Notes under the pieces: model-generated
Seen by the model: only the letters and a program-made list of their open reading frames with translations
The model's database searches: none
What the model was told of the DNA's origin: nothing
Shown here: positions 12,701 to 46,636 of the stretch, one piece after another
Numbering within the stretch: the stretch's first letter is position 1
Layout: each line of letters begins with the position of its first letter
Made by a program: the position numbers and the translations under genes
DNA from: Octopus sinensis
Lineage: Eukaryota
Reading direction: 5' to 3'
NCBI RefSeq assembly: GCF_006345805.1
Contig: NC_042997.1
Coordinates: 107,446,001 to 107,510,000 of the forward strand
Length of the DNA: 64,000 nt

Positions 12701-14536
12701 CCGTAGCAAGAAGTACTGAACGTCTGGGAATGTGTTTGGTTCGAGCAATCTTTATTCATTTGTACAAAAAGTAGTATGTTCATAGCTCTTTAGACCTTCC
12801 TAGAGAATGAAACTGGAATAACTATTGATGCTAAACATTTAATTTGAATTAAAGGTTAGTGACTGGCAGGAAAAGTTAGACTAGTGAGGAATTACTGTGG
12901 GGGTGACCAGATGAAGATGGATGCAAATAAGTTGGGGTGGAGTTGGTATAAAGTGGAATTTTGAGAGAGCAGAGCTCATTGCGTATAAAGGATTGAGGAA
13001 GGACTTCATTGAGAGGTAAAATGTTAGGAGAAAAAGGGAAGTTAATTCACATAGGTTAAGTGGCATGTGTAAAACTCTGTAAATTATGGAGAAAAAATGA
13101 AAAAGGGAATCAGTAAATGATGAAATTCGAGGTATGCACTGCCCCCCCCCCCCAATCATACCATGTGCATAGGGTAACTGTGTTCCCCTCTTAAACTTTT
13201 TGAGACTCCACAAAGCATTCACAGTAGGTGATTATGAAGCTGAGGAACTCAAACTACCATCCACCCTCTGAAGCCTCTTCATCTGATGCTTCGGTAAGGC
13301 AAGATACATTTTAGTATCTTTTGCACAGACAATATTTCCCAAATGATTTGCTGAAATTGTAGGTGACATCACCTTCTTTTGAACTGGGAACTGGATGTAA
13401 ACCTACATATGTGGAGGGGGCGGGAACTTATTGTTCCGGAACTAGAAAAAATTGACTTGAGAGTTTGGAACAATTCACTTCCCAGATATGTTTTCAACTC
13501 TTTGCACTTGTCTGATCAATCAAGGCACTACCTGCTTTCTCTGAGTACCTGATTTTCTGAAGGTTCAGTCAACACTTAACGTGTGGTAAACATTGGTGAC
13601 TTGATTATCTGGATGAGCTCTGCATCTTTATTGCCCTCAAAGTTGGAACTGATGTGTGTTGGGGAATAAGGTGTTGTAGTGGTAAGTTTCTTAAATCTAG
13701 AGTATTTTTCAATTATTACTGTTGACTGAATGCATGTCGTGTTGGTTGCTATAAGATGAACTTAGTTAAATAAATCCTACCCAGGGTAAATACCTCGTTA
13801 GTTGTGAAACCTATGAGATTGTGTAGGGTTTTAATGGGAAGAGACCTGATCAACTCTTTGCCATCTGGCTCAGAGGCAGATACTTTACCTGAGATACCCA
13901 ATGGTGACTTATTTGCTCCATCACATCCTAATGCTGCACTTGTTTTGTGCATTCAGAATGCTGAACAAAACAAGGCACTGAAATATCTAAATCTGTCAGT
14001 AAATTATGTTTTTCAACCTGTAGCTTTTGAGCCTTTGGAGAGTATTGGACCTCTGGTAAAGAAGATTTTTACTTTGTTTTATGCCCTATCTTGCTGAAAT
14101 TTGAAATGATGCTCAGGAAAGTGCCAAGCTGTTCCATTGTCTCACCTTTGCAATCACTTGCAGTATCACTATGAATGTTTTAGGGAGTCTCTAAAATTTT
14201 TGAGTAGAATGCTAATTTGCTGAGGAATATCATTTAAGGGGAACACCAGTTTGCCCCAAGTATATCATTTTATAGGGCAACACCTGTTTACCAAGGTATA
14301 TCATCTAATTCACTAACATAAATTGGTAGAATAAAAAAAAGAAGAAACATTTGTTTTTTATTTTCTTATTTTAATATGCAAGTAAACCTTATCCATCTCT
14401 TTCTGGGTTGTAAATGATATTTATAAATTATTTTAAAAATATTATTCAAAATAATTTCTCTGGTGACTTTATATTAAATATTTAGAACATTATGTAAACA
14501 AATTGTTTTCTTTTTTCTTTTGCAGTAGAATGAAAC

Positions 14537-14820
14537 ATGCCAAACATTGTCCAAGTTCAAAAAACCGAAGTCTTGAAATGCAAGCTTCGTCATGCATTTC
14601 TTGCCGTACAACATTGTGCATCTGTGTGGCAGGAATGTGCTCGTCAGCAAGAAGTGCAACTTAAGGAACTTTTTAACCTATGTGAACAATACCAGTGTTG
14701 TTATGAAGCAAATGTGGAATCTTTAGAGCTCCCTGCTAGTCTGAATGAAGTAAAATCCAAGTTACTTTATGTTATTGTGGAGAAGATAGAACAAAAACTG
14801 TGTGCAGTTCAAGCCACAAT
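14537..14820 (+). CDS. AIRIM: AFG2-interacting ribosome maturation factor (C1orf109), coding exon 1
   Basis: Polypyrimidine tract plus CAGTAG acceptor (14523-14528), ATG at 14537, GTAAGT donor at 14821 (phase 2). The helical pattern W..C......L.NL.EQ resembles human C1orf109. Confidence 0.85.
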
Positions 14821-14999
14821 GTAAGTGTTGTGAGTTAATTACTAAGACCACAGGGGTTCAGTTTCTCATTTGACTCTAATACAAGATTTGTACATGGATG
14901 GCCATCATCTCCTCACTCTCCTACCTTTGGAAGTATTCTTTCCTCTTCCATCTTCTGCTACAATTTCCATTTGAAATGCAAATCAAATGGAAATTGTAG

Positions 15000-15325
15000 T
15001 TAAGATACCTGTGCTGGTGACACGTTAAAAGCACCATCCGAACGTGGCAGATGCCAGCTCCACCTGACTGATGTCCATGTCGGTGACATGTAAAAGCACC
15101 AACCGATCATGGCCGTTTGCCAGCCTCATCTGGCCCCTGTGCTGGTGGCACGTAAAAAGCACCCACTACACTCACAGAGTGGTTGGTGTTAGGAAGGGCA
15201 TCCAGCTGTAGAAACACTGCTAGATCAGACTGGAGCCTGGTGCAGCCTCCTGGCTTCCCAGACCCCGGTCGAACCGTCCAACCCATGCTAGCATGGAAAA
15301 CGGACGTTAAACGATGATGATGATG
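15000..15325 (+). mobile_element. RTE-tail SINE with internal tandem subrepeats
   Basis: Three copies of ggtg(g/a)cacgtaaaagcacc; ends cccatgctagcatggaaaacggacgttaaac(gat)n. Further copies at 16615-16770, 18920-18961, 20075-20292, 22775-22996 and 28690-28898; inverted copy at 15370-15530. Confidence 0.8.
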
Positions 15326-16362
15326 TGTGTAGATAAGATGCATGTATAAATATGTGTGCGTGTATAATTATCATTATCAATTAACGTCTGTTATCCATGC
15401 TGGCATGGGTTGAACAGTTCAACAGCAGATGGTGAGACAGAGGATTGCACAATGCTCAAATGTCTGCTTTGGCTTGGTTTCTGCAGCTGGATGTCCTTCC
15501 GAATGCCAGTCATTTTACAGAATGTACTGGTTACGTTTTATGTACAGCCAGCACTAGTGAGGTTAACCAAGTAACTCACGAGACCCTTCAGCTGAGGGTG
15601 GGGGAAGTAGTATTGAGATAGGTTGACAGATGTCACATGATGACAGGTTAAAGCCCCAGGCACAGGTTTCTTGCTGCTGGGGAGACATGTGGTTATAGTG
15701 AAGATGTGTCAGAGCATCAAATTACAGGAATGTTAAATTACCTTGAACAAACAGACAACACGAAGTCGAGATACTCTTCCTGTGTAGAAAGTAATTTATT
15801 TAGTGTTGGTGCTGAGACAAACTGTACTCGGTAGTAAACTGTGTAAGGTGGTTGGTAAACAAATAGGCACAGTTTAGAATAGAGACAATCCTTTAGTTTT
15901 GTTGAGGACAAGACAACCTCTCAAGTGTTGATACCATGGTAAAACATACCCAGTTGTACAGTGTTTAGTGTTAAAAAGAACATCCAGCCATACAAACCCT
16001 GTGAAGAAAAGAATGTATAAGGAAAATGTGGTTCCTGACTCATCTAGAAAGGTGGTGACTCAAATAGCAGCTGACTCAGATTATGAGGACCTATCTAACC
16101 CATGACAACCTAGAAAGTGGGCGAAAATAATGATGATGATGATGATGATAGAGGTGGACGTATGGAATTGGACAGTGTGAGTGAAATCTGTATGTCATGT
16201 TATGCCATTAGTTCTGATCTTGAAAAGATAATGTTTATCTTTTGGGTTTGTACATATTTTTTTTTATTAATGTTTGTATCTGAATTGGCAGACATCGATA
16301 TGATAAACTTATTAACTGCATTCTATTTTATTGAAGTAATGTCTCTGTCTTTTCATTTTTAG

Positions 16363-16524
16363 ATGTGAATTTCAAAAATCTTATGACAAAGTGAATCAAG
16401 CAAGAATCAATGCTTTTGAACAAAAACCCGACATGGTTTACTTGACTGAGAGTAGAGCCATGTCCCCAACTCTGGCTACCATGTTGGAATGGTTAGATGA
16501 TACAGAAAGACAGGTTTTTGTACA
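16363..16524 (+). CDS. AIRIM: AIRIM/C1orf109 coding exon 2
   Basis: Acceptor tttttag, phase compatible. SPTLATMLEWLDDTER matches human SPSVADMLEWLQDIER. Ends at U12 donor ATATCCTTT (16525); alternative GT donor at 16514. Confidence 0.88.
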
Positions 16525-17129
16525 ATATCCTTTGTTGATTTCATTCTTTACATTATTGATCACTTCATTTTTTTTTTAAGGAATAAATCAGCTGAATATT
16601 AATTGAATATTAGTGTCTCGGAGTGGTTGGCGTTAGGAAGGGCATCCAGCTGTAGAAACTCTGCCAGATCAAAATTGGAGCCTGGTGCAGCCATCTGGTT
16701 CGCCAGCCCTCAGTCAAAATCATCCAACCCATGCTAGCATGGAAAGCGGACGTTAAACGATGATGATGATGTCTCCCGCTGTCCACATGGAAAGCCAATT
16801 TGATGACTGATTGATTGATAAGTTAGTGAAATATATTCCAGTGGTTCTGAAACCTGTAGAACTTTCTCCCAGGCTGGTGAAATTGATGCGTGATGAATAA
16901 CCTGGCCACCTGTAGGTCAGTGTTTGCAGGAATGAGGAACATATCATTTGCTTTGATTACTTGCAATAGATTGACCTAAGCTCAAGTGATGAGGTTAAGC
17001 TGATACAAACAAGTGTGTGTGTTTCAGTTCTTAGTCCCCTCTTATTTATCTAGCCCTCCATGCCATAATAGAGGGATGAGTAGTGATACATCCACCCATC
17101 TTGGTGAAATTGAGATTCTGGAGGCTATA

Positions 17130-18340
17130 TATATATAATTTCAGGAAACCAGTCAGTTCACCTGATGACCTATAAATCTGGTGACCATACTAGCCAGATT
17201 GACTACATTCTCATTGGAAAGAAAGATTCATGGTTGCTCATAAATGCAGAAACTTTCCCAGGTGAAGAATGTATCTCTCAGCATAGTGGTTTCAGACTAT
17301 GGGCATGAAGGATTCCAAGAAGCAAGCCAATTTGGAAAAGGACCTGGAAGCTTAAGGCTCTTCTGAATAGCCAGGGATTTAGAGACTGAATCCTAACTGA
17401 AGCATTTATTGAGAAGGAGGTAGAGTTACAGACAGGTAACATAGAGGATAACTGGAAGTTCCTACGAGACAACTTATCAAGAGCCACAGACCAAATTTGT
17501 GGCTGCTTGCCAAGTCCCAGCCAGACCTGGAGTGACATGGTAGTGGAAGAGTGTAGTTGGCAGGGCCATTAGAGCAAAGAAGCAGGCCTGGAAGAGTGGC
17601 AGTAGCAGGGAACTATATTGGGTAGTGAGAATAGAAGCTAGGAGGCAGGTATACTTAGCTAGGGGTGAAGCAGATAGGAAGAAGTTTGCCAATGTGCTGT
17701 GGTGTGAGGATCAACAGCTTGAAGTGTTTTGATTTGCAAGACAGCGAGTCAGGGAAAATTGTGATGGAGAGAAATGCATTCACATGGATGATGGTTCACT
17801 TGCAGTTAGGGACTCTGCAAAGAAAGGGGCTTGGAAGTGTCACTATGAAAGGCTGCTAGATGTAGAGAATGCATGGGAGAAGGAGAGTCTGTCTAATGTG
17901 GATCTAACAGAGGGACCAGCTATCCAAATAGACCATAACTTGTTAGCTAAATTAGATAGAGCCATGACAGATATGAAGACGGGGAAATCCTCTGCAGGAA
18001 TAACTGCTGAGGTGCTTAAAATATCTGGTGGTGTGGGTTATGGTCTCGCCACCCTTATAGTCAATCAGGTTGTATACTAGGGAGTTGTACCCAATGACTG
18101 GTGTAGCAACACCATAGTCACTGCTACAAAGGCAAGGGTGATGCCTTAGATAGAAATAATTACAGAGGTATCAAATTGTTGGATCAGGTGATAAAAGTTA
18201 CGGGGAAGGTCATAGCCCAACTAATTAGGAAGAGAGTTAGTCTAGATGAGATACAGTTTGATTTTGTGCTGGGGAAAAGCACCACTGATGCTATATTTCT
18301 GGTAAGGCAGCTGCAGGAGAAGTACCTGGCCAAAGATAAG
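17130..18340 (+). mobile_element. RTE LINE fragment (end of APE endonuclease to start of RT) inside the U12 intron
   Basis: SQIDYIL, SAGITAEVLK, STTDAIFLVRQLQEKYLAK motifs; stops and frameshifts. Confidence 0.85.
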
Positions 18341-18571
18341 CATGGAGAAACAGATGTGAAAAAGATGAACATATTCAATGTTAATCTATATCCATTTCTA
18401 TTTTTCTTAGTACTGGTGTAATTTTCTGGTTTCCTACAGCTATATTTGAACTGTTGTTCTTCTTATCCATAGGACTTTGCCATTTCATGAAGAGGGGATT
18501 CACTTTTGTGAAGTCTGAAACCATTTATTTCAATTTTTATTATTTTGGTTAGTGATGTATTTATTTAAAAG

Positions 18572-18610
<39 letters not shown>

Positions 18611-18662
18611 CTATATGTATGTAAGTATATATGTATGTGTGTGTGTATATATATATATATAA

Positions 18663-18781
18663 TATATACATATTAGAGGGAAACCACTATGTGGACACCC
18701 TTATGCTAGAAATAAGACCATAGCAGATCTATTTCTAGCATAAGGGTGTCCACATAGTGGTTTCCCTCTAATATGTATATA
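18663..18781. repeat. Perfect inverted repeat, 52-bp arms, 15-nt loop
   Basis: 18663-18714 is the reverse complement of 18730-18781. Confidence 0.92.
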
Positions 18782-18886
18782 ATACAATTTTACTGAACCT
18801 TCAGTTTTTTATATGCTAGACCACTGGTGTGAAATCGATGTTAATTAAATTAATATCTAATTTCTCACCCTCATTTTAAATTTATA

Positions 18887-18921
<35 letters not shown>

Positions 18922-19089
18922 CCCATGTTAGCATGGAAAACGGACGTTAAATGATGATGATATATATATATAGAGAGAGAGAGAGAAGAAGGGGGGGGGG
19001 TTGTATATAAACAAAGTATGTTTATAAATGATTATTTCAGGCAAGCTAAACTAATGAGTTTATTAATTTGCTTCCTTAACTAATTTTAA

Positions 19090-19205
19090 GCTACACCTCA
19101 AGAAATATTTACTTGATGAAATGAAATATGGTGACGTGTCAATCCTGCAGCAGCTTCTCAAATCCTGGTTACTTGATGATACTAAAGTCATCAATAAAAT
19201 CCAAG
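19090..19205 (+). CDS. AIRIM: AIRIM/C1orf109 coding exon 3
   Basis: LHLKKYLLDEMKYGDVSILQQLLKSW aligns with human YLKRKYLLSSIQWGDLANIQALPKAW. Preceded by U12 branch site TTCCTTAAC (19072-19080); donor AG|GTAAAG at 19206 (phase 1). Start is 19090 (AT-AA model) or 19091 (GT-AG model). Confidence 0.85.
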
Positions 19206-21861
19206 GTAAAGGATACTATATTGGTAATCTTTCAGTAATTCTTTTTTTCATCCTCTTACGTTTTCAGCCTGACACCAAGGTCAATATGAGGAAATAATTT
19301 ACAAACCACTTCTATAAAAATTGTCTGTTTAGGACCAGGTTTTCTATTTTAGAAAAATCTACGTGTTTGGAGATTGTGAAAAGACTGCTGGCTTTCGTTT
19401 CATTAATACTTATCTGTGGTTGTGGTTGGCAGTGGGAGCTGTGCTCTTGATCCCCTTCTGTGTATGCATCTATGTTACATTTTCTCTTACTGTCACTGCT
19501 TCTCCTTCTTTGGTTATAGAAGTGTGATTGTTGGCATTGATGAAGGTCTGATGCACTCAGCTCTTTGCTGTTCCAAAGGTCAGGAAGCCTTCAGCTGGTC
19601 TGGTTTGTCATATATGTTAGCACTGTGATTTTCTCCCTTCTACTACCATTCATTCTGCTTACACTCTTCAAACTGAAAGTGATCCGGGATGCTAGATAAA
19701 TTCTCAGATGCCACCAACATCTGGAACTTCAGAGACAAATCCATTCTATTCTTCCACAGATTGAACTTGAGTGCTATAATCTTTGTTCTTCCTCATTGCT
19801 GCCACTCCAGCCTGGTCCGTGTTGTGATTCATCTTTTGGTCACTCATCTTTCCAAGTGAAATAAGATCCCGGTAAAATCTTGGGTTGCATTGGTGGCCAT
19901 AGCCAGAATCTTAGCGTCTACCTTATTGTTAAGGGACAATTGTCCTAAGTTGTTTACTTCTTGTTATAAATCCAATGCAGGACCACGCTTTCCACAGGCA
20001 TTTTATGACTTGTACTGGACTGGGACACTGTAGCTTTCTTTCTTTTCTGTTTGAGGCAATGACAAATTCATAGTCATGGCCGATGCCAGTGTCGCGTAAC
20101 TGGCACCCGTGGCAGTGGCATGTAAAAGGCACCCATTACACTCTTGGAGTGGTTGGTGTTAAGAAGGGCATCCAGTCATAGAAATCATTCCAAATCAGAC
20201 TGAAACCTGGTGCAGCTCTCCAGTTTACCAGTTCCAGTCAAACCATGTAACCCATGCCAGCATGGAAAGCGGATGTTAAATGAAGATGATTATGATGCAT
20301 TAGTTTTTTTGTTTTGGGATGAGCTATGTACTTCAGCAACAGGAAATTTCATGAATCTCAAGCATGTGATATCAGATTTATCACTATCATCATCATCATC
20401 ATGGCAGTATAAAGGTACATTGATTGGATCAGGTCTGTTCACCCAACTGTGGAATGTGCGACGATTCGGAAGAGACCACAGCTCACATTGTATTGGAATG
20501 TCCACAGTAAGCTCAGAATAAATACAAACAGTGTTGGTATAAGATTGCAATAATACATTGGAATTTTTACAGGAAATTTAGTTTTGCATGCAGATAAAAA
20601 AAGTTATAACCATTTTGTGGGACTAGAGATGCAAACCCCCGAAAATCCAAGACATCATAAGAATATGTAAAGGTTCTTAATACAGTTGATATTCTATGGG
20701 TTCGTGTTGTGTGTGAATGTATATGTATGGACCAGTTACGAGTCTATCATTTCAATATAAACCATTCATGAACATTTGGAATCTATTGTTGTGAAGGTTG
20801 TATAGTCTGAGCCTGTTTGTGACTTCTACTGAATCATTTGTTCCCCACCACTGGAGTAATAACATTTTTATGAGCCGTAAAGGGATGTCACAACTAACCA
20901 CACGTATAGAATTATCTGTATATCACTGTCATCCATATGGGTAATCATTCTAGCATAAACTAATGGCTACCTGTAATAGGGGAAATATGATTGAGCTGTA
21001 ACCACATCCAACTGAATAACGAACCTCATTTGAATTTGGTTTCTGCGGTTGAACCACTCAATTACCTCCCTTGTATTAATTCAGAGGCCAAGTTGCATTT
21101 GGTGTTGAATTAGGGGAACTACTGTAATCTTTTTGCCTATCTTACCTATATCTAATATTGATGGGTTGACTAATTTAATAGTGAGCTATCTGCTAAAGTC
21201 TAGTGTGTGCTCTTTCACTTTATTGGTACAGGTTTTCCATTTTATCTGAGTGGATTATCAAATCCAGGGAATTATGGACACTTAATCTGTAGTGTGGAAC
21301 TTGTTTCTATTTCTTTTAAACAAACTTCTTTTACAGCGTGGAAGGTGTTTATAAGCGTTTTAAGAAACACACAAAAACCATTAGATTCACTTCAACATTT
21401 AAATTTAATTTGTCAAAATATTTTCGTCGCTTTGAGACTGCGACCTGTTCACTGACAAAATTCCATGCTGCATTTTAAATGGCTTATAAACACCTTCCAT
21501 TCTGCAATTGTTTTTGTTCCAGCATACGATCTCAGATCAGGTCACTTGCTATGCAAGTACATCTCCGCAAACTTCTTTTAATCATGGATAATCATTCAAC
21601 TATGGTAGTAGTTGAATAATATTCTCAAGGTTGCAATTTACTCACATGCAGCATCTTTCAGAGCTTGTTGCTAATTCAGTTCTGAACCAAATTGAAAACT
21701 CTTAACACTTTTGAAGAGGATTGGTCCCTAGCTACATTTTGGCATAAAAAATTGAGATTTGATCCAGTAGAAAAAAGTTTACATCAAAATTTGTAGCGAC
21801 GTTTTTGGAGAGTAAGTAATGCAACCAATCAAGTTTAGATCTAAATAACTTTTTTTTATAA

Positions 21862-22091
21862 TAAAGATTGTTTGCCAATATAACATGGCAGTCCTGGTTT
21901 AGGACTAATGTTGCTGTAATTTAGCCCCAGGAGACACCATCTACAGCTGGCTATACAACACAATCTGTGTCCTTATATTTTCGAACAGATCGTGTTGTAT
22001 AGTCAACTGTAGATGATGTCTCCTGGGGCTAAATTACAGCAACATTCGTCCTAAACCAGGACTGCCATGTAATGTTGGCAAACAATCTTTA
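21862..22091. repeat. Near-perfect inverted repeat, ~107-bp arms, ~16-nt loop
   Basis: 21862-21968 pairs with 21985-22091 with about seven mismatches. Confidence 0.9.
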
Positions 22092-23432
22092 CTACAAGGT
22101 ACTGTTGCTGAATATCTCACGTTGTGAGATTTAGAAATAGTAATTTTCGAACTTTTTTTAACTTTAAAAGCAAAATATATTTATCTTAGCTTCAATGATA
22201 GAAGAAAGCATGAAGAATTTCATAGTTTTGTTCCTATGCAACAAAAATGTGTATCAAAAAAGTTGTGAGGTAAAATATCATGAAGAAAAATTGAAGTACT
22301 TTGATTAAGCTTAAATGAAAGAGCTCAATTTGAGGAATTTCATGGTATCAATCTCTTGCAATGAAGTTTTAAAAGAAAAATTATGAGTGCTTGTTTCTCA
22401 AATTTGAGGGTGATAATATAATTGTATACTTTTTTATGAATATAGTTAAGGGGGCTTTTAATATGTGAGCGACATCATTGAGGTAAGGAAAAAAAATTAT
22501 CAATGACACCACTAATTGACACAATATTAGTAAGCATTACAGCATATCCTGGAAAAGACATGGATTACATGGAAAAATGCAAGCAAGAGAAATAATATTC
22601 TTATGATTGTAAACCTGGAAAATAACAGGACAAGTTATTACATTTGGAAAAGTTCAGAACAACTTATTAAATCTGGTAAAATATAGAACAAGAAAATTTT
22701 TACTTAAAATATTGCAGCTAAGAATAAAATTTGAATATTAAAAATCATTTGATTTTAATTTACAAAGTAACATTGTGGCACGTAAAAAGCACCATCCATC
22801 CGTGGCCATTTGCCAGCCCCGTCTGGCACCTGTGCCAGTGGTACGTAAAAAGCACCCACTACACTCACGGAGTGGTTGGTGTTAGGAAGGGCATCCAGCT
22901 GTAGAAACATTGCCAGATCAGACTGGGCCTGGTGCAGCCTTCTGGCTTCCCAGACCCCAGTTGAACCGTCCAACCCATGCTAGCATGGAAAGCGGAATAC
23001 TTTAAAAATGAGAGCCAGAAGTCCCAATATAGCTAAAGTTTTATGACAAGTAGAATAGTATATATGGTACGCAAATTCATTATGTAAAAAATAGGCATTG
23101 GGTCAAGACAGAAAATGTGGAGACTTGGCAGTAATAACTAATTTTTGTATTCATCATCATCATCATCATCATCATTTAACAATAGTCTTTTGTCAGAAAC
23201 TTCCTAATTAGCATTTATTGTGAAAAACTGATTTTGATTGTTTGGTCTCAACTCAAATGATCAAGAATGTACCGAGATTGGATTATTTAAAGATCTTTCT
23301 TTTTCAGTATTTATGATGGGTTTTATGACAAATATTCTTTTGTACCATCATGATTTGTTGTTACCTGTTTAACAAATATTAGAATATCCTGATTGCATCT
23401 TTTTCACGAATGTCAGTTTGTCCCAAAACATA

Positions 23433-24297
23433 AATAATAATAATAATAATAATTGTGTACAGTGCTCAGGTGCACTACAACTCATCTAAAGTGTATATAT
23501 AATCAGGTGTAGTTTCGGCGGATTTCGGAAAGCATGAGGGCCTTAAAGGATGCAGTGTCATGGCAGTCAACAACTGACGCAGGCAGTTTATTCCATGCTT
23601 CAGCAACTCTGAGCATGAAAAAATGTTTCCGAAAGTCATGGGAGCTGTGTTGTTTTCTGACTTTGTAGGCATGTCCACGTGTGTTAGACACATGGAGATC
23701 AAAAAGGTGTTCAGTGTTGTTGTTGGTGAGGTGGTTGATGATAACTTTGTGGGTGTTTACCAACGCCGGAGCTTCAGTGAATCCATGCCCAGGGAAACAA
23801 GGCGCTCAGAATATGGTAGGTGTCTGATGGAGGGTATGCGTTTGGTTGCACGTCTCTGGACAGATTCCAGAAGGTCAATGTTCTGAGCAAGATAGGGGTT
23901 CCAAACTGATGATGCGAATTCCAAGTGTGGTCGTACCATAGCTGTATACAGTTTTAAATAGATGGCTGGAGAGCGGCTAACAAAAGTCTTGCTGAGTGAT
24001 GCCAAGACACCCTCGGCCTTCGTGACAATTTTAGAGATATGCTTTGTCCAACGCAAATCACTGCTGACAGTGATGCCTAGGTCACGCTCGCAAGAGGATT
24101 TCTTGATATCAGTGTTGTGGAGGGAGTATGTGGACGCAGGGTTTTTCTCCCAAAATGTATGGTGGTACACTTGTCCACAGCCAGTTTCAGTTGCCAGTCT
24201 GTGATCCATTGCTGCATTGTGTCTAGGTCTGATTGCAGGAAAGAGTTGTAGACATCAGGATCAGTCCTCTTGATTTCAAGGTACAGCTTGCAAGACA
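23433..24297 (-). mobile_element. 5'-truncated CR1-clade LINE, little decayed
   Basis: ERDLGITV, YTAMVRPHLEFASSVWNP, LESVQRRATK, NTRGH..K, FFMLRVAEAWNKLP; short 3' UTR and (TTA)n tail. Confidence 0.88.
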
Positions 24298-24432
24298 TTT
24301 GTCAGCAAACAAACCCTTACTCACTGTTCTTTCTTTCACATTGAGTTTTTATGCTTTTTAATGGAAACATTTAATGTTTTCATCAGTGTTGAAGTTTCTG
24401 TAAATTTTATTGTTTGTTTCTTTGTTTTCCAG

Positions 24433-24473
24433 AAAGACTTCTTTATTTGGAGGATTTCATGAACGAACCTTAA
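24433..24473 (+). CDS. AIRIM: AIRIM/C1orf109 last coding exon
   Basis: Strong acceptor tttgttttccag, phase 1 gives ERLLYLEDFMNEP-stop (human DILLNVSFFLEE-stop). Total 200 aa. AATAAA at 24756-24761. Confidence 0.8.
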
Positions 24474-27400
24474 TTAAGGATTGGGAATCAAGCAGGATCT
24501 CATTGGGTACATTCTCCGGATCAATACTAAAAGAAAACAAAATTTATTTGTAATTAATTGGGTTAAACATGTCATTGCTCTCAGGGAAAATACAAGTGTG
24601 TTTCAATAGACACCACAGATTGAAAAGTTTTAGATGAAAGTCAAAGAGGAACGTGAGAAATGGTGACTTTTGGAAGCTATTTTATTTCTGTCTAAATCTT
24701 GTTCTATTTAACAATTTGAATAGTTATTTGGTATTGAGGCAGCAGTTAAGGAATCAATAAATGTTCATTGATCTATATGGAGAAATGCTTTACCTAAATT
24801 CTAAAATCTTTATTCAGCTGATTTGATTTGGTAAGCACTAAGCTTCATTTTATTTGTGGATTGTAAATTTACTCAGCAGATATCCTTAGATTAAAACAAC
24901 AGTCGTTGTTGTTGTTAGCGGCTTTGTTGAAATGTTACTGGTGTTTGTTGTGAGTAATTTATTGATGCTTTACATTAGGGTTGTTTGTGTGAGTAGCTCT
25001 TTCTTGGAACAGTAGCTGAGTACTGTGTAGATATTGCAGAGGTGAGGAGTTGTATTAGAAAGTTTGTTTTTGAGTAGTTGGTACTCATTGGGTTGATGTG
25101 AGGACTTGGTACGCTGTATAGTTTTTATTCTTTATTGAGAATATTAATATTAGTGGTAGCTATTGTTGAAGAAGTTACTTTGAGGATGTAATATCGTGTC
25201 AGGACACTCAGTGCATGTCGCAGTTAGTTGTCAGAGGAACTCTGGAGTATTGCTGCCAATATTAAACTGGATTAGACTGCCTCAGTTATATCTCTATGTT
25301 CCAGTTTCAAATCCTGCCAAGGCTACATTTGTCCCTTTAAACTAAATTCTAGCAATGTTTTTGTTTCTTATAAACCTTTGGCCTCATTAGACAGAATTTC
25401 ATGTGATAATATAAAGGTGCAGTAGCAGAATTGGTAGTTTTTGTGATAGTAACTGCCTAATGGTATTTAGTTTTGTCTTTCTACATTCCGAGTTCAAATC
25501 TTGCTGGGTCAAATTTGCCTTTCACTCCTCTGAGATCAGTAAAATAACTATTAAAAGATAACTGAAGTTGAATTATTTAAGTATATTTCCCTTCTTAAGC
25601 ACACTTAATGCCTATTCCAGTGTGAGGGATGAATATTGGTTAATAGAGATGGGGTGGGTTTGACAGAAATAGTAAAGTGCCAAATGAAATTTCTTAGTTT
25701 ATTCTTGGTTAAAAAATCAATCTCCTGAAAATTTATAAAATAAATACCAAAAAATAAGTTGGCTTCATTTAAATAATTCCACTCCTACAAATTAAGGGTT
25801 CTGTTTAAGGATGGTCTGAAAATCAAAGGGGGACATCACAAGCTGAAGATGGCATCTTAAGCTAAGGGAGACATCAAAAGCTAACTTCATCTAAAAGAAA
25901 TAACTTGGTATTTTCAAATTAAAAATAGAATTTTACTTGATTATGGAATGAAAAGGCTAAAAGTAATTAAAATGCTTGTAGTAATACTGCTGTTTGTTCA
26001 CAAATTTTCGTTAAGAATAAATAAAAAAACTGTTTAAAGAAATTGTTTTAATTATTGAAATAGGTTGTTAAATGTAGAATTGTTAGCATAACATGAAAAA
26101 ATAGTTGTTTTAGATAATTTGAGCTTTGCTTAGTTTAGAAGGTTACTTCACTTTCACTGACAAATTTAGATATTTCAAGAAATCTGATGTGATTGATTTT
26201 TTAAAAATGATTTTACATCAATTTATTGGGGCAATTACTTTTGGAACTGGGTATACGTCCTACCACTTTCCACTCAGCTGGAGCAAATAGATCTCAGTGC
26301 TTTGCTCAAACATATAAGACAATGGAAGTTGTAAAATTTGAACTTATGACCTTGAAGTTGCTAGGCCAACACTTGAACCTTACTGGTAACAAAAAATAAA
26401 AAATGAAGTAATAAAATTTAATTTCATAGTGGCCTGTTGTCAGAAGACAAATTTTTTTTATCTGAATAAAAAATAAATGATTCTGAAGTATTTGAGATAT
26501 TAAGTTATTGCAATAATTAGTTTCTCTTGAGATTATTACAAACCTTTGCAAGTTTCTAATTAATAATCATATTGATTAATTTAATAATTGTTGATTGTTG
26601 TTTTTATTGTTAAGCATTTCCACCAATTATGAAAACTGTCAATCACAAACAGTTAAATATTAAACCATTAAAACTGATATTAGTGTTTTATGTGAGATGA
26701 AGGTGCCAGGCTTTTAACTACATTGTCATGTTTGAACCTTATTGCGACAGCTGTTGTGTTGTGGCCATAATTCTGTTTCCCTCAGTTGATCTTACTAACA
26801 CCAGAAGACTTGAGTTGTACTTTGCTATAAATAATGGGGTTAACCATGATATTACATCCAGCTGTTAAACTAATCACTCCAACAGGAAACAACTTTGTAA
26901 AAGCACCATTCTATTCCTGCTAGCATGATCTATGGATATAGAACAGTTTGGTCAAAAAAAATATATCTCTGGTTTTCTTTTACATATTTCTGGTTCAGCA
27001 CTAAATTTCTTTGTTGGCCATTTTATTGCCATCATAAATTATCATGATCCCCCCCCCCATTTTTTTTTTTAATCTTACACCAGAACATTGATGAGTGTGA
27101 TATATTATTAAATATAACAAATGATCATATTCCAAATGTTTTTTGTTTGGTTTTGAAAATAAAATAAATTTAAAACTGACATCTTTTTTTTTTATTCTTT
27201 TGGTTTTTTTCATGGTATCAGTTTTATTACTTTTTTATTTTCATTTTAATCTGTTAAGTTATGTCTTGTAACTTACAGACAGTTTATGCAGTAAGGGATA
27301 GATATGAAAATTTATTGAGTCTAGTGACATTTGGTAAAGAGATACAAAGTGGTTTGAAAACCAGCAACAGATAGCAATGCATAGAACCTTGGGAAACTAA

Positions 27401-45437: not shown

Positions 45438-46636
45438 GGTTTATGATTTTTCCTTGAGGTTTATTTAAGTTCTTAAGGCAATTCAATCCGGTCGCTAACA
45501 AAACAACAAGACTTTTTGAGCCGAGAGAGTTCCCAGTATTTGTAGATATGTGGTTGAGCTGGTGTGCTGGTCGAACTGTCGATGCAGACACCCAAGTGTG
45601 TGCATCTGTTCACATAAGAATCTCAGCTGGAGAATCTTTGGAATGTCTTACAAATCTTCATTGTGCCACTATTAGAATGGATTTGGAGAAATCGCGTCAG
45701 TTTCTTTTGTCCATTCTCCGTGAAACCAAGTGTTTCTAGGTTTTTGGGCAAATTTATTGGTACAACACAACCCAATGCACCTATGACGATAGGTACATAT
45801 GAGATTTCATTTTCTGGGTACAAGAGCTGTAAGTTCCGCATTAATTCGCCATAAATGTTCTCTTTTTTCCCCTGACCTTTTGATTGTACATTCACACCTA
45901 CTGGACCTTTACAACAACGCATGACTTTTGTTTTTTGTTCCATAGAACAACATCAGGTCTGTTATGTTTGCACCGAATTGATGTTTTTATTGGGATGTTC
46001 CACCGGTATTCCTTGTTTTTAAAGGTGTGAATACCTGCTGGTTCTGACATGCCTTTGATATATACATCAGGGCAGTCCTTCTTACGGGTAGTCCTTGCAA
46101 CTATATCATGCCTCAGGGGCAGGTAGTGTCTCGTAAACATTTTGGGGCAGACGCTGATGATATGGGTGTTGTCTTCCACACTGGTATAGCAAAAGCCTAC
46201 ATTTTTTTAATCAACGTGGAGGTTTAGTGGTATCTTTGTCCCTTTTGTTTATCATGCTTTTAATAGCCATCTTCTGTTCCTGGATAGTGAAAGCACACGT
46301 ATCCTTCTTAGTTGGGATGAAATATATCTATCGCAGATCTAGGAGAGGCTTCTCTTCCTGTCAGTGCTGTTGTTACTCCCTAGCTTACAGGATATGTACC
46401 CATGCATTGCTTTTTGCGGGTATGATGCCTGCTCCCCATCCAGGTTTCTGTTTTGGTAGGCCAGTCCAGCTTCCTTTGGGTCGCATGGGACATTGATATT
46501 CTCAGAGTAACGTCACAGTAGTTCTTCCCCAACTCTGAAGATGCTATTCTCACTTTCGAATATGCATGGAATATACTCATTTCTTTCTATTCTGTTCAGC
46601 GGGTGTTGTCTGAGTGATACAATGCGACATTCAAAT
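45438..46636 (-). mobile_element. R4/Dong-type RLE retrotransposon fragment in (TATG)n
   Basis: THIISVCPKM, HYLPLRHD, KHNRPDVVLW, YVPIVIGALG; (TATG)n on both flanks. Confidence 0.82.

Follow-up and report, generated by a model that had tools for sequence, protein, structure and literature searches.

An AT-AA intron of probable U12 type in octopus C1orf109/AIRIM, at the site of a human GT-AG minor intron

Introduction

Minor (U12-type) introns that begin with AT and end with AA are rare, and AT-AA is the commonest non-canonical terminus of the minor class (Larue and Roy, 2023, PMC10639083). Table S1 of that survey gives 823 AT-AA introns among conserved animal minor introns (1.117%) and 690 among those of plants (2.958%). 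Human AT-AG introns were counted at 11 and AT-AA introns at three by Sheth et al. (2006, PMC1557818), where it is also described that AT-AN introns splice productively and that an MSH3 intron has AT-AA ends in human but AT-AC ends in mouse. Since 11 human introns are of the AT-AG kind, this combination can work as well. Switching between minor-intron subtypes has likewise been described (Sheth et al., 2006, PMC1557818; Lin, 2010, PMC2831892).

Choice of the 3' splice site in U12-type introns has been reviewed as error-prone, with an optimum branch distance of 11-13 nt and with AT-AG and GT-AC combinations that appear disfavoured (Turunen et al., 2013, PMC3584512). For the major spliceosome of yeast it was described that the last intron base pairs with the first and the A at position -2 with the branch A, that Prp8 prefers a pyrimidine at -3, and A-C was modelled for minor introns (Wilkinson et al., 2017, bioRxiv 212811).

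The closest described counterpart of the intron studied here lies in human C1orf109, which has been named as a minor-intron-containing gene (PMC6865273). The human intron (chr1:37683438-37686272, minus strand) is classified as U12 G-type with GT-AG ends, has two acceptors 4 nt apart, and is increasingly retained upon depletion of CENATAC, with a delta PSI of 0.09-0.15 (de Wolf et al., 2021, PMC8280824). No paper on the octopus intron was found in literature searches; both Octopus species are within the survey of Larue and Roy (2023, PMC10639083), and per-intron tables could list it.

Here, we describe an intron in a 64,000-nt stretch of Octopus sinensis DNA (the window). Positions 16525-19089 very probably constitute an intron of octopus C1orf109/AIRIM that is spliced out with AT…AA ends, likely via the minor (U12) spliceosome, and that shares codon and phase with the human GT-AG minor intron. 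The intron is real and ordinary in kind, the AT-AA class being already known. The first-pass annotation of this DNA had called AT-AA a very rare U12 subtype, which is correct as to rarity but overstated for the commonest non-canonical minor subtype.

Results

Judged by the sequence of its product, the host gene of the intron is octopus C1orf109/AIRIM. The full product was matched by the Pfam family PF15011 at 65.4 bits (cut-off 27), and the exon 16363-16524 alone was matched as well. Human AIRIM (PDB chain 9gwj_A) was found at 5.6e-64 with a profile built from 18 homologues, including one from a mammal, and named protein records assign a C1orf109/AIRIM gene to Octopus. AIRIM is described as a partner of the SPATA5 ATPase complex in late maturation of the 60S subunit. 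The coding sequence is distributed over the exons 14537-14820, 16363-16524, 19090-19205 and 24433-24473 (Table 1). A putative 3' end of the last exon was placed by means of 2,544 and 2,640 unplaced contig letters together with an AATAAA at 27158.

Table 1. Positions of the gene segments and splice signals at the octopus C1orf109/AIRIM locus
Feature	Position	Strand	Basis
First coding exon	14529..14820	+	ATG at 14537; contigs X1 record 3 and X5 record 16 over 14525-14820; model is P0003
GT-AG intron, ordinary, 1,542 nt	14821..16362	+	Joint 14820->16363 in X1 and X5
Exon 5' of the minor intron	16363..16524	+	Ends two bases into Gln149
U2-like GT donor within the exon, 11 nt upstream of the AT donor	16514..16519	+	Used in two public gene models; not used in the RNA contigs aligned
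AT-AA U12-type intron, 2,565 nt, phase 2	16525..19089	+	Joint in X1 and X5; product is P0003
U12-type 5' splice site ATATCCTTT	16525..16533	+	Sequence; pairing with U11 and U6atac
U12 branch-point sequence TTCCTTAAC	19072..19081	+	Pairing with U12; predicted branch A at 19079
3' splice site in use, TAA	19087..19089	+	10 nt from the predicted branch A; pyrimidine at -3
Adjoining AG	19089..19090	+	11 nt from the predicted branch A; purine at -3
Exon 3' of the minor intron	19090..19205	+	RNA contigs with 0 other letters
GT-AG intron, 5,227 nt	19206..24432	+	Acceptor placed by protein match; contig alignment ends at 19205
Last exon	24433..27163	+	Stop at 24471-24473; putative 3' end

Upstream of the first coding exon a tandem NAGNAG acceptor is present (14523-14528), with acceptors that end at 14525 and 14528, and the main RNA contigs begin at 14525. 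A separate RNA contig covers 13361-13680 (depth 58 in X1 and 8.66 in X5), and the segment 13361-13681 is bounded by an AG and by a GTAAGT donor at 13682. This segment is probably a 5' UTR exon of C1orf109; no joint linking it to the first coding exon is among those listed.

Contigs of four sequencing runs out of 24 listed (X1, X5, X9 and X18) were aligned to positions 13200-23300 of the window. X1 and X5 derive from organism A in two studies, X9 from organism B, and X18 is DNA-type; the RNA type of X1, X5 and X9 was guessed, the runs being recognised as spliced by their joins alone. One contig each of X1 and X5 (depth 81.5 and 54.9) carried both the GT..AG joint 14820->16363 and the AT-AA join. 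The latter was given as 16523->19089, skipping 2565 letters with AA..TA ends. Since one letter fits on either side, this equals 16524->19090 with AT..AA ends, and the alternative AA..TA register fits no splice signal. The join proposed by the first-pass annotation is therefore present in RNA-type contigs of two of the three runs, the third (X9) having no contigs over the exons. In each of the two runs, the contig with the AT-AA join explains the whole depth of the bin that holds exon 19090-19205 (X1: 28.3 expected, 28.3 seen; X5: 19.06 expected, 19.1 seen). Rival joins were not found among the 15 joints listed, with 762 more beyond these, and contigs drop rare variants. As far as these data reach, AT-AA splicing is constitutive.

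The intron carries both signals of the U12 class where they had been proposed, the donor at 16525 in phase 2 and the branch sequence at 19072-19080. ATATCCTTT at 16525 agrees with the RTATCCTTT 5' splice site of U12-type introns, exactly at the true intron start, and TTCCTTAAC at 19072 contains the TTCCTTRAY branch motif (19072-19080), which is complementary to U12 snRNA. Each of the two 9-mers is single-copy on the + strand of the window. With third-order composition, a donor motif is expected by chance within 15 nt of the exon end with a probability of about 5e-4, and a branch motif at 8-20 nt upstream of the acceptor with one of about 6e-5.

To judge from scores above the Rfam cut-offs, the host encodes the minor snRNAs U11, U12 and U6atac: U12 was found in this genome at 126.6 bits, U11 at 94.5 and 93.8 bits and U6atac at 96.9 bits. 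U11 can be paired with the donor in a run of 7 nt (six Watson-Crick pairs and one G-U), U6atac with the donor in six Watson-Crick pairs, and U12 with the branch sequence 19072-19078 in seven Watson-Crick pairs, to which two further pairs past the bulged A19079 can be added by eye. Of 46 scored U6atac candidates at least 43 exceeded the Rfam cut-off, spread over many contigs (e.g. L010, L011 and L012), next to three for U12 and five for U11; this excess is likely a family of retro-copies.

In combination with the AT donor, each of AG 19090, AC 19094 and AC 19096 leads out of frame and into a stop, as had been claimed. The further claim that only the AA at 19088-19089 restores the frame was too narrow: a cut after 19089 leaves the frame open, but four other A-N cuts are in frame, namely after 19080 (AC), 19083, 19101 and 19104 (all AA). 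Their distances from the branch A are 1, 4, 22 and 25 nt, and each of these cuts alters the length of the protein. The gapless match of the spliced product to human AIRIM holds against PDB chain 9gwj_A.

Four octopus protein records correspond to four different splice models, and only P0003 fits the join seen. P0003 (XP_029639338.1 of O. sinensis and XP_014777345.1 of O. bimaculoides) is identical to the AT-AA product in 200 of 200 residues, so that the correct protein is already in RefSeq; the comparison was made at the protein level. P0001 (CAI9715675.1, O. vulgaris) is reproduced by joining GT 16514 to AG 19090 (196/196 residues), P0004 (O. vulgaris) by an AT/AC 19096 model that is frameshifted (157/157), and P0005 (XP_014777349.1, O. 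bimaculoides isoform X2) by the exon skip 16514/24432 (153/154). The AG at 19090, which leads to a frameshift with the AT donor, is in frame with the 16514 donor at the cost of four residues.

Homologues were collected by a HMMER search (43 sequences) and by word-index protein searches (two each). One MAFFT alignment of 45 sequences was made, in which four had a gap at an anchor column, and P0003 and P0001 were left out of the count. The spacing between the columns of Trp138 and Tyr155 was 17 in 37 of the 39 scorable homologues, one of which (P0010) is likely a read-through model; the two remaining ones had 16 and 31. A spacing of 17 was also found in the AT-AA product and in human AIRIM, and one of 13 in P0001. 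Within the cuttlefish cluster, members of other lengths (154-216 aa) deviated at the N-terminus alone, and the junction was unchanged in 12 of 12 sequences. The models P0010, P0035 and P0046 continue at this place into a Tyr-Pro pair, which is what read-through into an RTATCC donor should produce, and the split codons of such models cannot separate A-type from G-type. A search for orthologous loci in metagenomes gave 159 pattern matches and no relative.

Gene models from other animals that read through or stop at the intron position were observed, namely P0010 (Tegillarca granosa), P0035, P0040 (Solemya velum) and P0046. This site may be widely mis-annotated.

The human C1orf109 intron is located two bases into a Ser codon, 11 residues past a conserved Trp, and the octopus intron two bases into the aligned Gln149. 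Both introns thus share gene, codon, phase 2, an RTATCCTTT donor and a CCTTAAC branch, and they are similar in length (about 2.8 kb in human and 2.6 kb in octopus). Both have a second acceptor near the true one, the rival AG being 4 nt upstream in human and 1 nt downstream in octopus, and the distance from the branch to the intron end is 11 nt in human versus 10 nt in octopus. They differ at both terminal bases, with GT-AG (G-type) in human and non-canonical AT-AA (A-type) in octopus, and the human acceptor has a purine at -3, unlike the octopus TAA.

At the 3' end the octopus intron resembles human AT-AA introns of other genes in another lineage. A table of human introns yielded 12 matches, two of them on the U2 sheet, and the ten U12 AT-AA rows were read by eye. 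The -3 base is a pyrimidine in all ten; two of ten have G as the first exon base, and the branch distance is 8-18 nt, a range that includes the 10 nt of octopus, one below the 11-13 nt optimum. AT…AA ends, the pyrimidine at -3 and the 8-18 nt distance are shared by introns of ABHD18, PIGB, MSH3, RASGRP4 and PROX2. Precedents for an AA|G junction exist in human in ABHD18 (NM_001319307.1), which has this context in common with the octopus intron, and in XM models of THOC2.

Discussion

The first-pass annotation had explained the choice of AA over the adjoining AG by distance from the branch point. Since AA lies at 10 nt and AG at 11 nt, the latter within the reviewed optimum of 11-13 nt and the former below it, distance alone does not pick AA. 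Both candidates have an A at -2; TAA has a T at -3 and AAG an A. By analogy with the yeast major spliceosome, from which the docking geometry is taken, terminal-base pairing and the pyrimidine at -3 likely decide for AA. According to this model, the ATATCCTTT donor would be read by U11 and then by U6atac, and U12 would pair with the branch sequence and bulge A19079, the predicted branch nucleotide. In the second step TAA (19087-19089) would dock rather than AAG one base on, on the one hand as an intron that starts with A would disfavour a last G, on the other hand as TAA offers the preferred pyrimidine at -3 and AAG a purine. The distance of 10 versus 11 nt would merely limit the choice to this neighbourhood. 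A single change from AC would be the simplest origin of the AA end, and any slip to AT-AG would be expected to be cleared by nonsense-mediated decay (NMD) as noise.

Besides constitutive AT-AA splicing, a regulated contest with the major spliceosome has to be considered. Here AT-AA splicing would supply the main product, and when minor splicing is slow GT 16514 would be used by the major spliceosome and joined either to AG 19090, with loss of four residues, or to the last exon, giving a 154-residue truncation. Public models fit both products (CAI9715675.1 the 16514/19090 join and XP_014777349.1 the exon skip), an aligner that merely shifts the AT-AA junction could not produce the skip form, and yUnAy-type branch candidates occur 24-36 nt before AG 19090. 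There is good documentation of cryptic U2 sites near minor introns (PMC8329584), and a U2-like donor beside a U12 donor, in annotated isoforms, is shared with the prospero twintron, SRSF10 and CENATAC (PMC8329584). Unlike these competing U12/U2 introns, the octopus route through 16514 is known from annotated isoforms alone. Neither join was among the 15 joints listed, with the skip acceptor at 24433 lying outside the aligned 13200-23300, and the form that is four residues short departs from the spacing of 37 of 39 homologues. Furthermore, O. vulgaris also has the frameshifted AT-AC 19096 model P0004, which suggests that models were forced onto canonical ends. We regard such a contest as unlikely, though the U2-like donor at 16514 is a better lead for alternative use than a switch to AT-AG.

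A broader version would combine these elements: the minor spliceosome prefers TAA to an adjacent, in-range AG, the U2 donor 11 nt upstream allows a bypass that either deletes four residues or skips the exon, and regulation of this balance couples the amount of a 60S-maturation factor, which is essential, to minor-spliceosome activity. This we consider somewhat less likely than the contest itself.

It had also been proposed that discrimination between AA and AG forms a rate-limiting step or an NMD switch. In that case a meaningful share of transcripts would be cut at AG 19090, out of frame, and destroyed by NMD, which would tune C1orf109 levels. In favour of this, the competing AG directly adjoins the site in use, and its 11 nt fall within the optimum given by Turunen et al. 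(2013, PMC3584512), who also review the choice of U12 3' sites as error-prone. Human C1orf109 likewise has two annotated acceptors 4 nt apart (PMC8280824). The AT-AG product of 159 residues would end at a stop 81 nt before the last junction. This would be enough for the 50-55 nt rule of NMD, if that rule holds in molluscs. On the other hand, the join 16524->19091 was absent among the 15 joints listed, and the 159-residue form is none of the four octopus proteins compared. As contigs and NMD would both hide such a form, the proposed switch is unsupported rather than contradicted by these absences. In addition, the AA|G context is not special, being found also in human ABHD18 (NM_001319307.1) and in the THOC2 XM models. 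A regulatory switch of this kind is improbable.

Very little speaks for an assembly or allele artefact, in which the real end would be AC and the intron an ordinary AT-AC minor intron. Base 19089 itself is not read by the RNA join, the letters of the RNA runs depart from those of the window at scattered positions (e.g. 16393), and the AA end is the one read in the window and in X18. X18 record 13, a DNA-type contig, covers 19002-20142 without gaps and with a single other letter in 1,141, the place of which was not located, and over the donor region X18 has no differing letter. A check of the acceptor for an assembly error, as the first-pass annotation had advised, gave no sign of one in this contig, X18 being very close to the window and possibly not independent of it. 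AA at 19088-19089 is hence supported by X18, and the O. vulgaris models point the same way: P0001 would need an AG at 19089-19090, and thus an A at 19089, and P0004 reaches for AC 19096, which would be unexpected if AC stood at 19088-19089. Together the two models would imply AAG at this place in a second assembly.

Least probable of all is that the main transcript uses a normal GT-AG intron from 16514 to 19090, which is in frame and annotated in O. vulgaris (P0001), but the dominant contig in both covering runs has the AT-AA join, and the GT-AG product is four residues shorter than 37 of 39 homologues and scores 61.6 bits against PF15011 versus 65.4 bits for the AT-AA product.

With AT-AA splicing as the preferred reading, an RNA-supported invertebrate AT-AA minor intron is added whose human counterpart is GT-AG, a difference at two ends of an intron site common to molluscs and mammals. 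The same intron splits the public annotation into four splice models in four octopus records. With its TAA|G end it provides a ready substrate on which pairing of the first with the last base, the base at -3 and the branch distance can be told apart in their effects on minor 3' site choice. The locus would gain in importance only with evidence that the U2 bypass or the AT-AG slip is both abundant and under regulation.

Further observations in the window

Contigs of the RNA runs were also found inside the minor intron (depths 3.9-10.6) and inside the flanking GT-AG introns (3.8 and 6.8). These contigs were not taken as a sign of retention through slow minor splicing, as they occur in the GT-AG introns as well and overlap a LINE-like repeat.

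The sequence GTATCCTT/GTATCCTTC at 46299 (+) was considered as a second minor donor and discarded, since by eye no coding exon precedes it and no strong branch motif follows. On the minus strand GTATCCTTT is present at 19208-19216, just inside the next intron, probably by chance.

Inside the minor intron, a decayed LINE-like reverse-transcriptase fragment was recognised by eye at 17200-18340, with open reading frame pieces at 17733-18080 and 18107-18421; the fragment has high repeat depth in all runs. A very abundant short repeat that ends in ATG triplets is found at 15130-15325, 16616-16771 and 22775-22990, one copy of it lying 90 nt into the minor intron.
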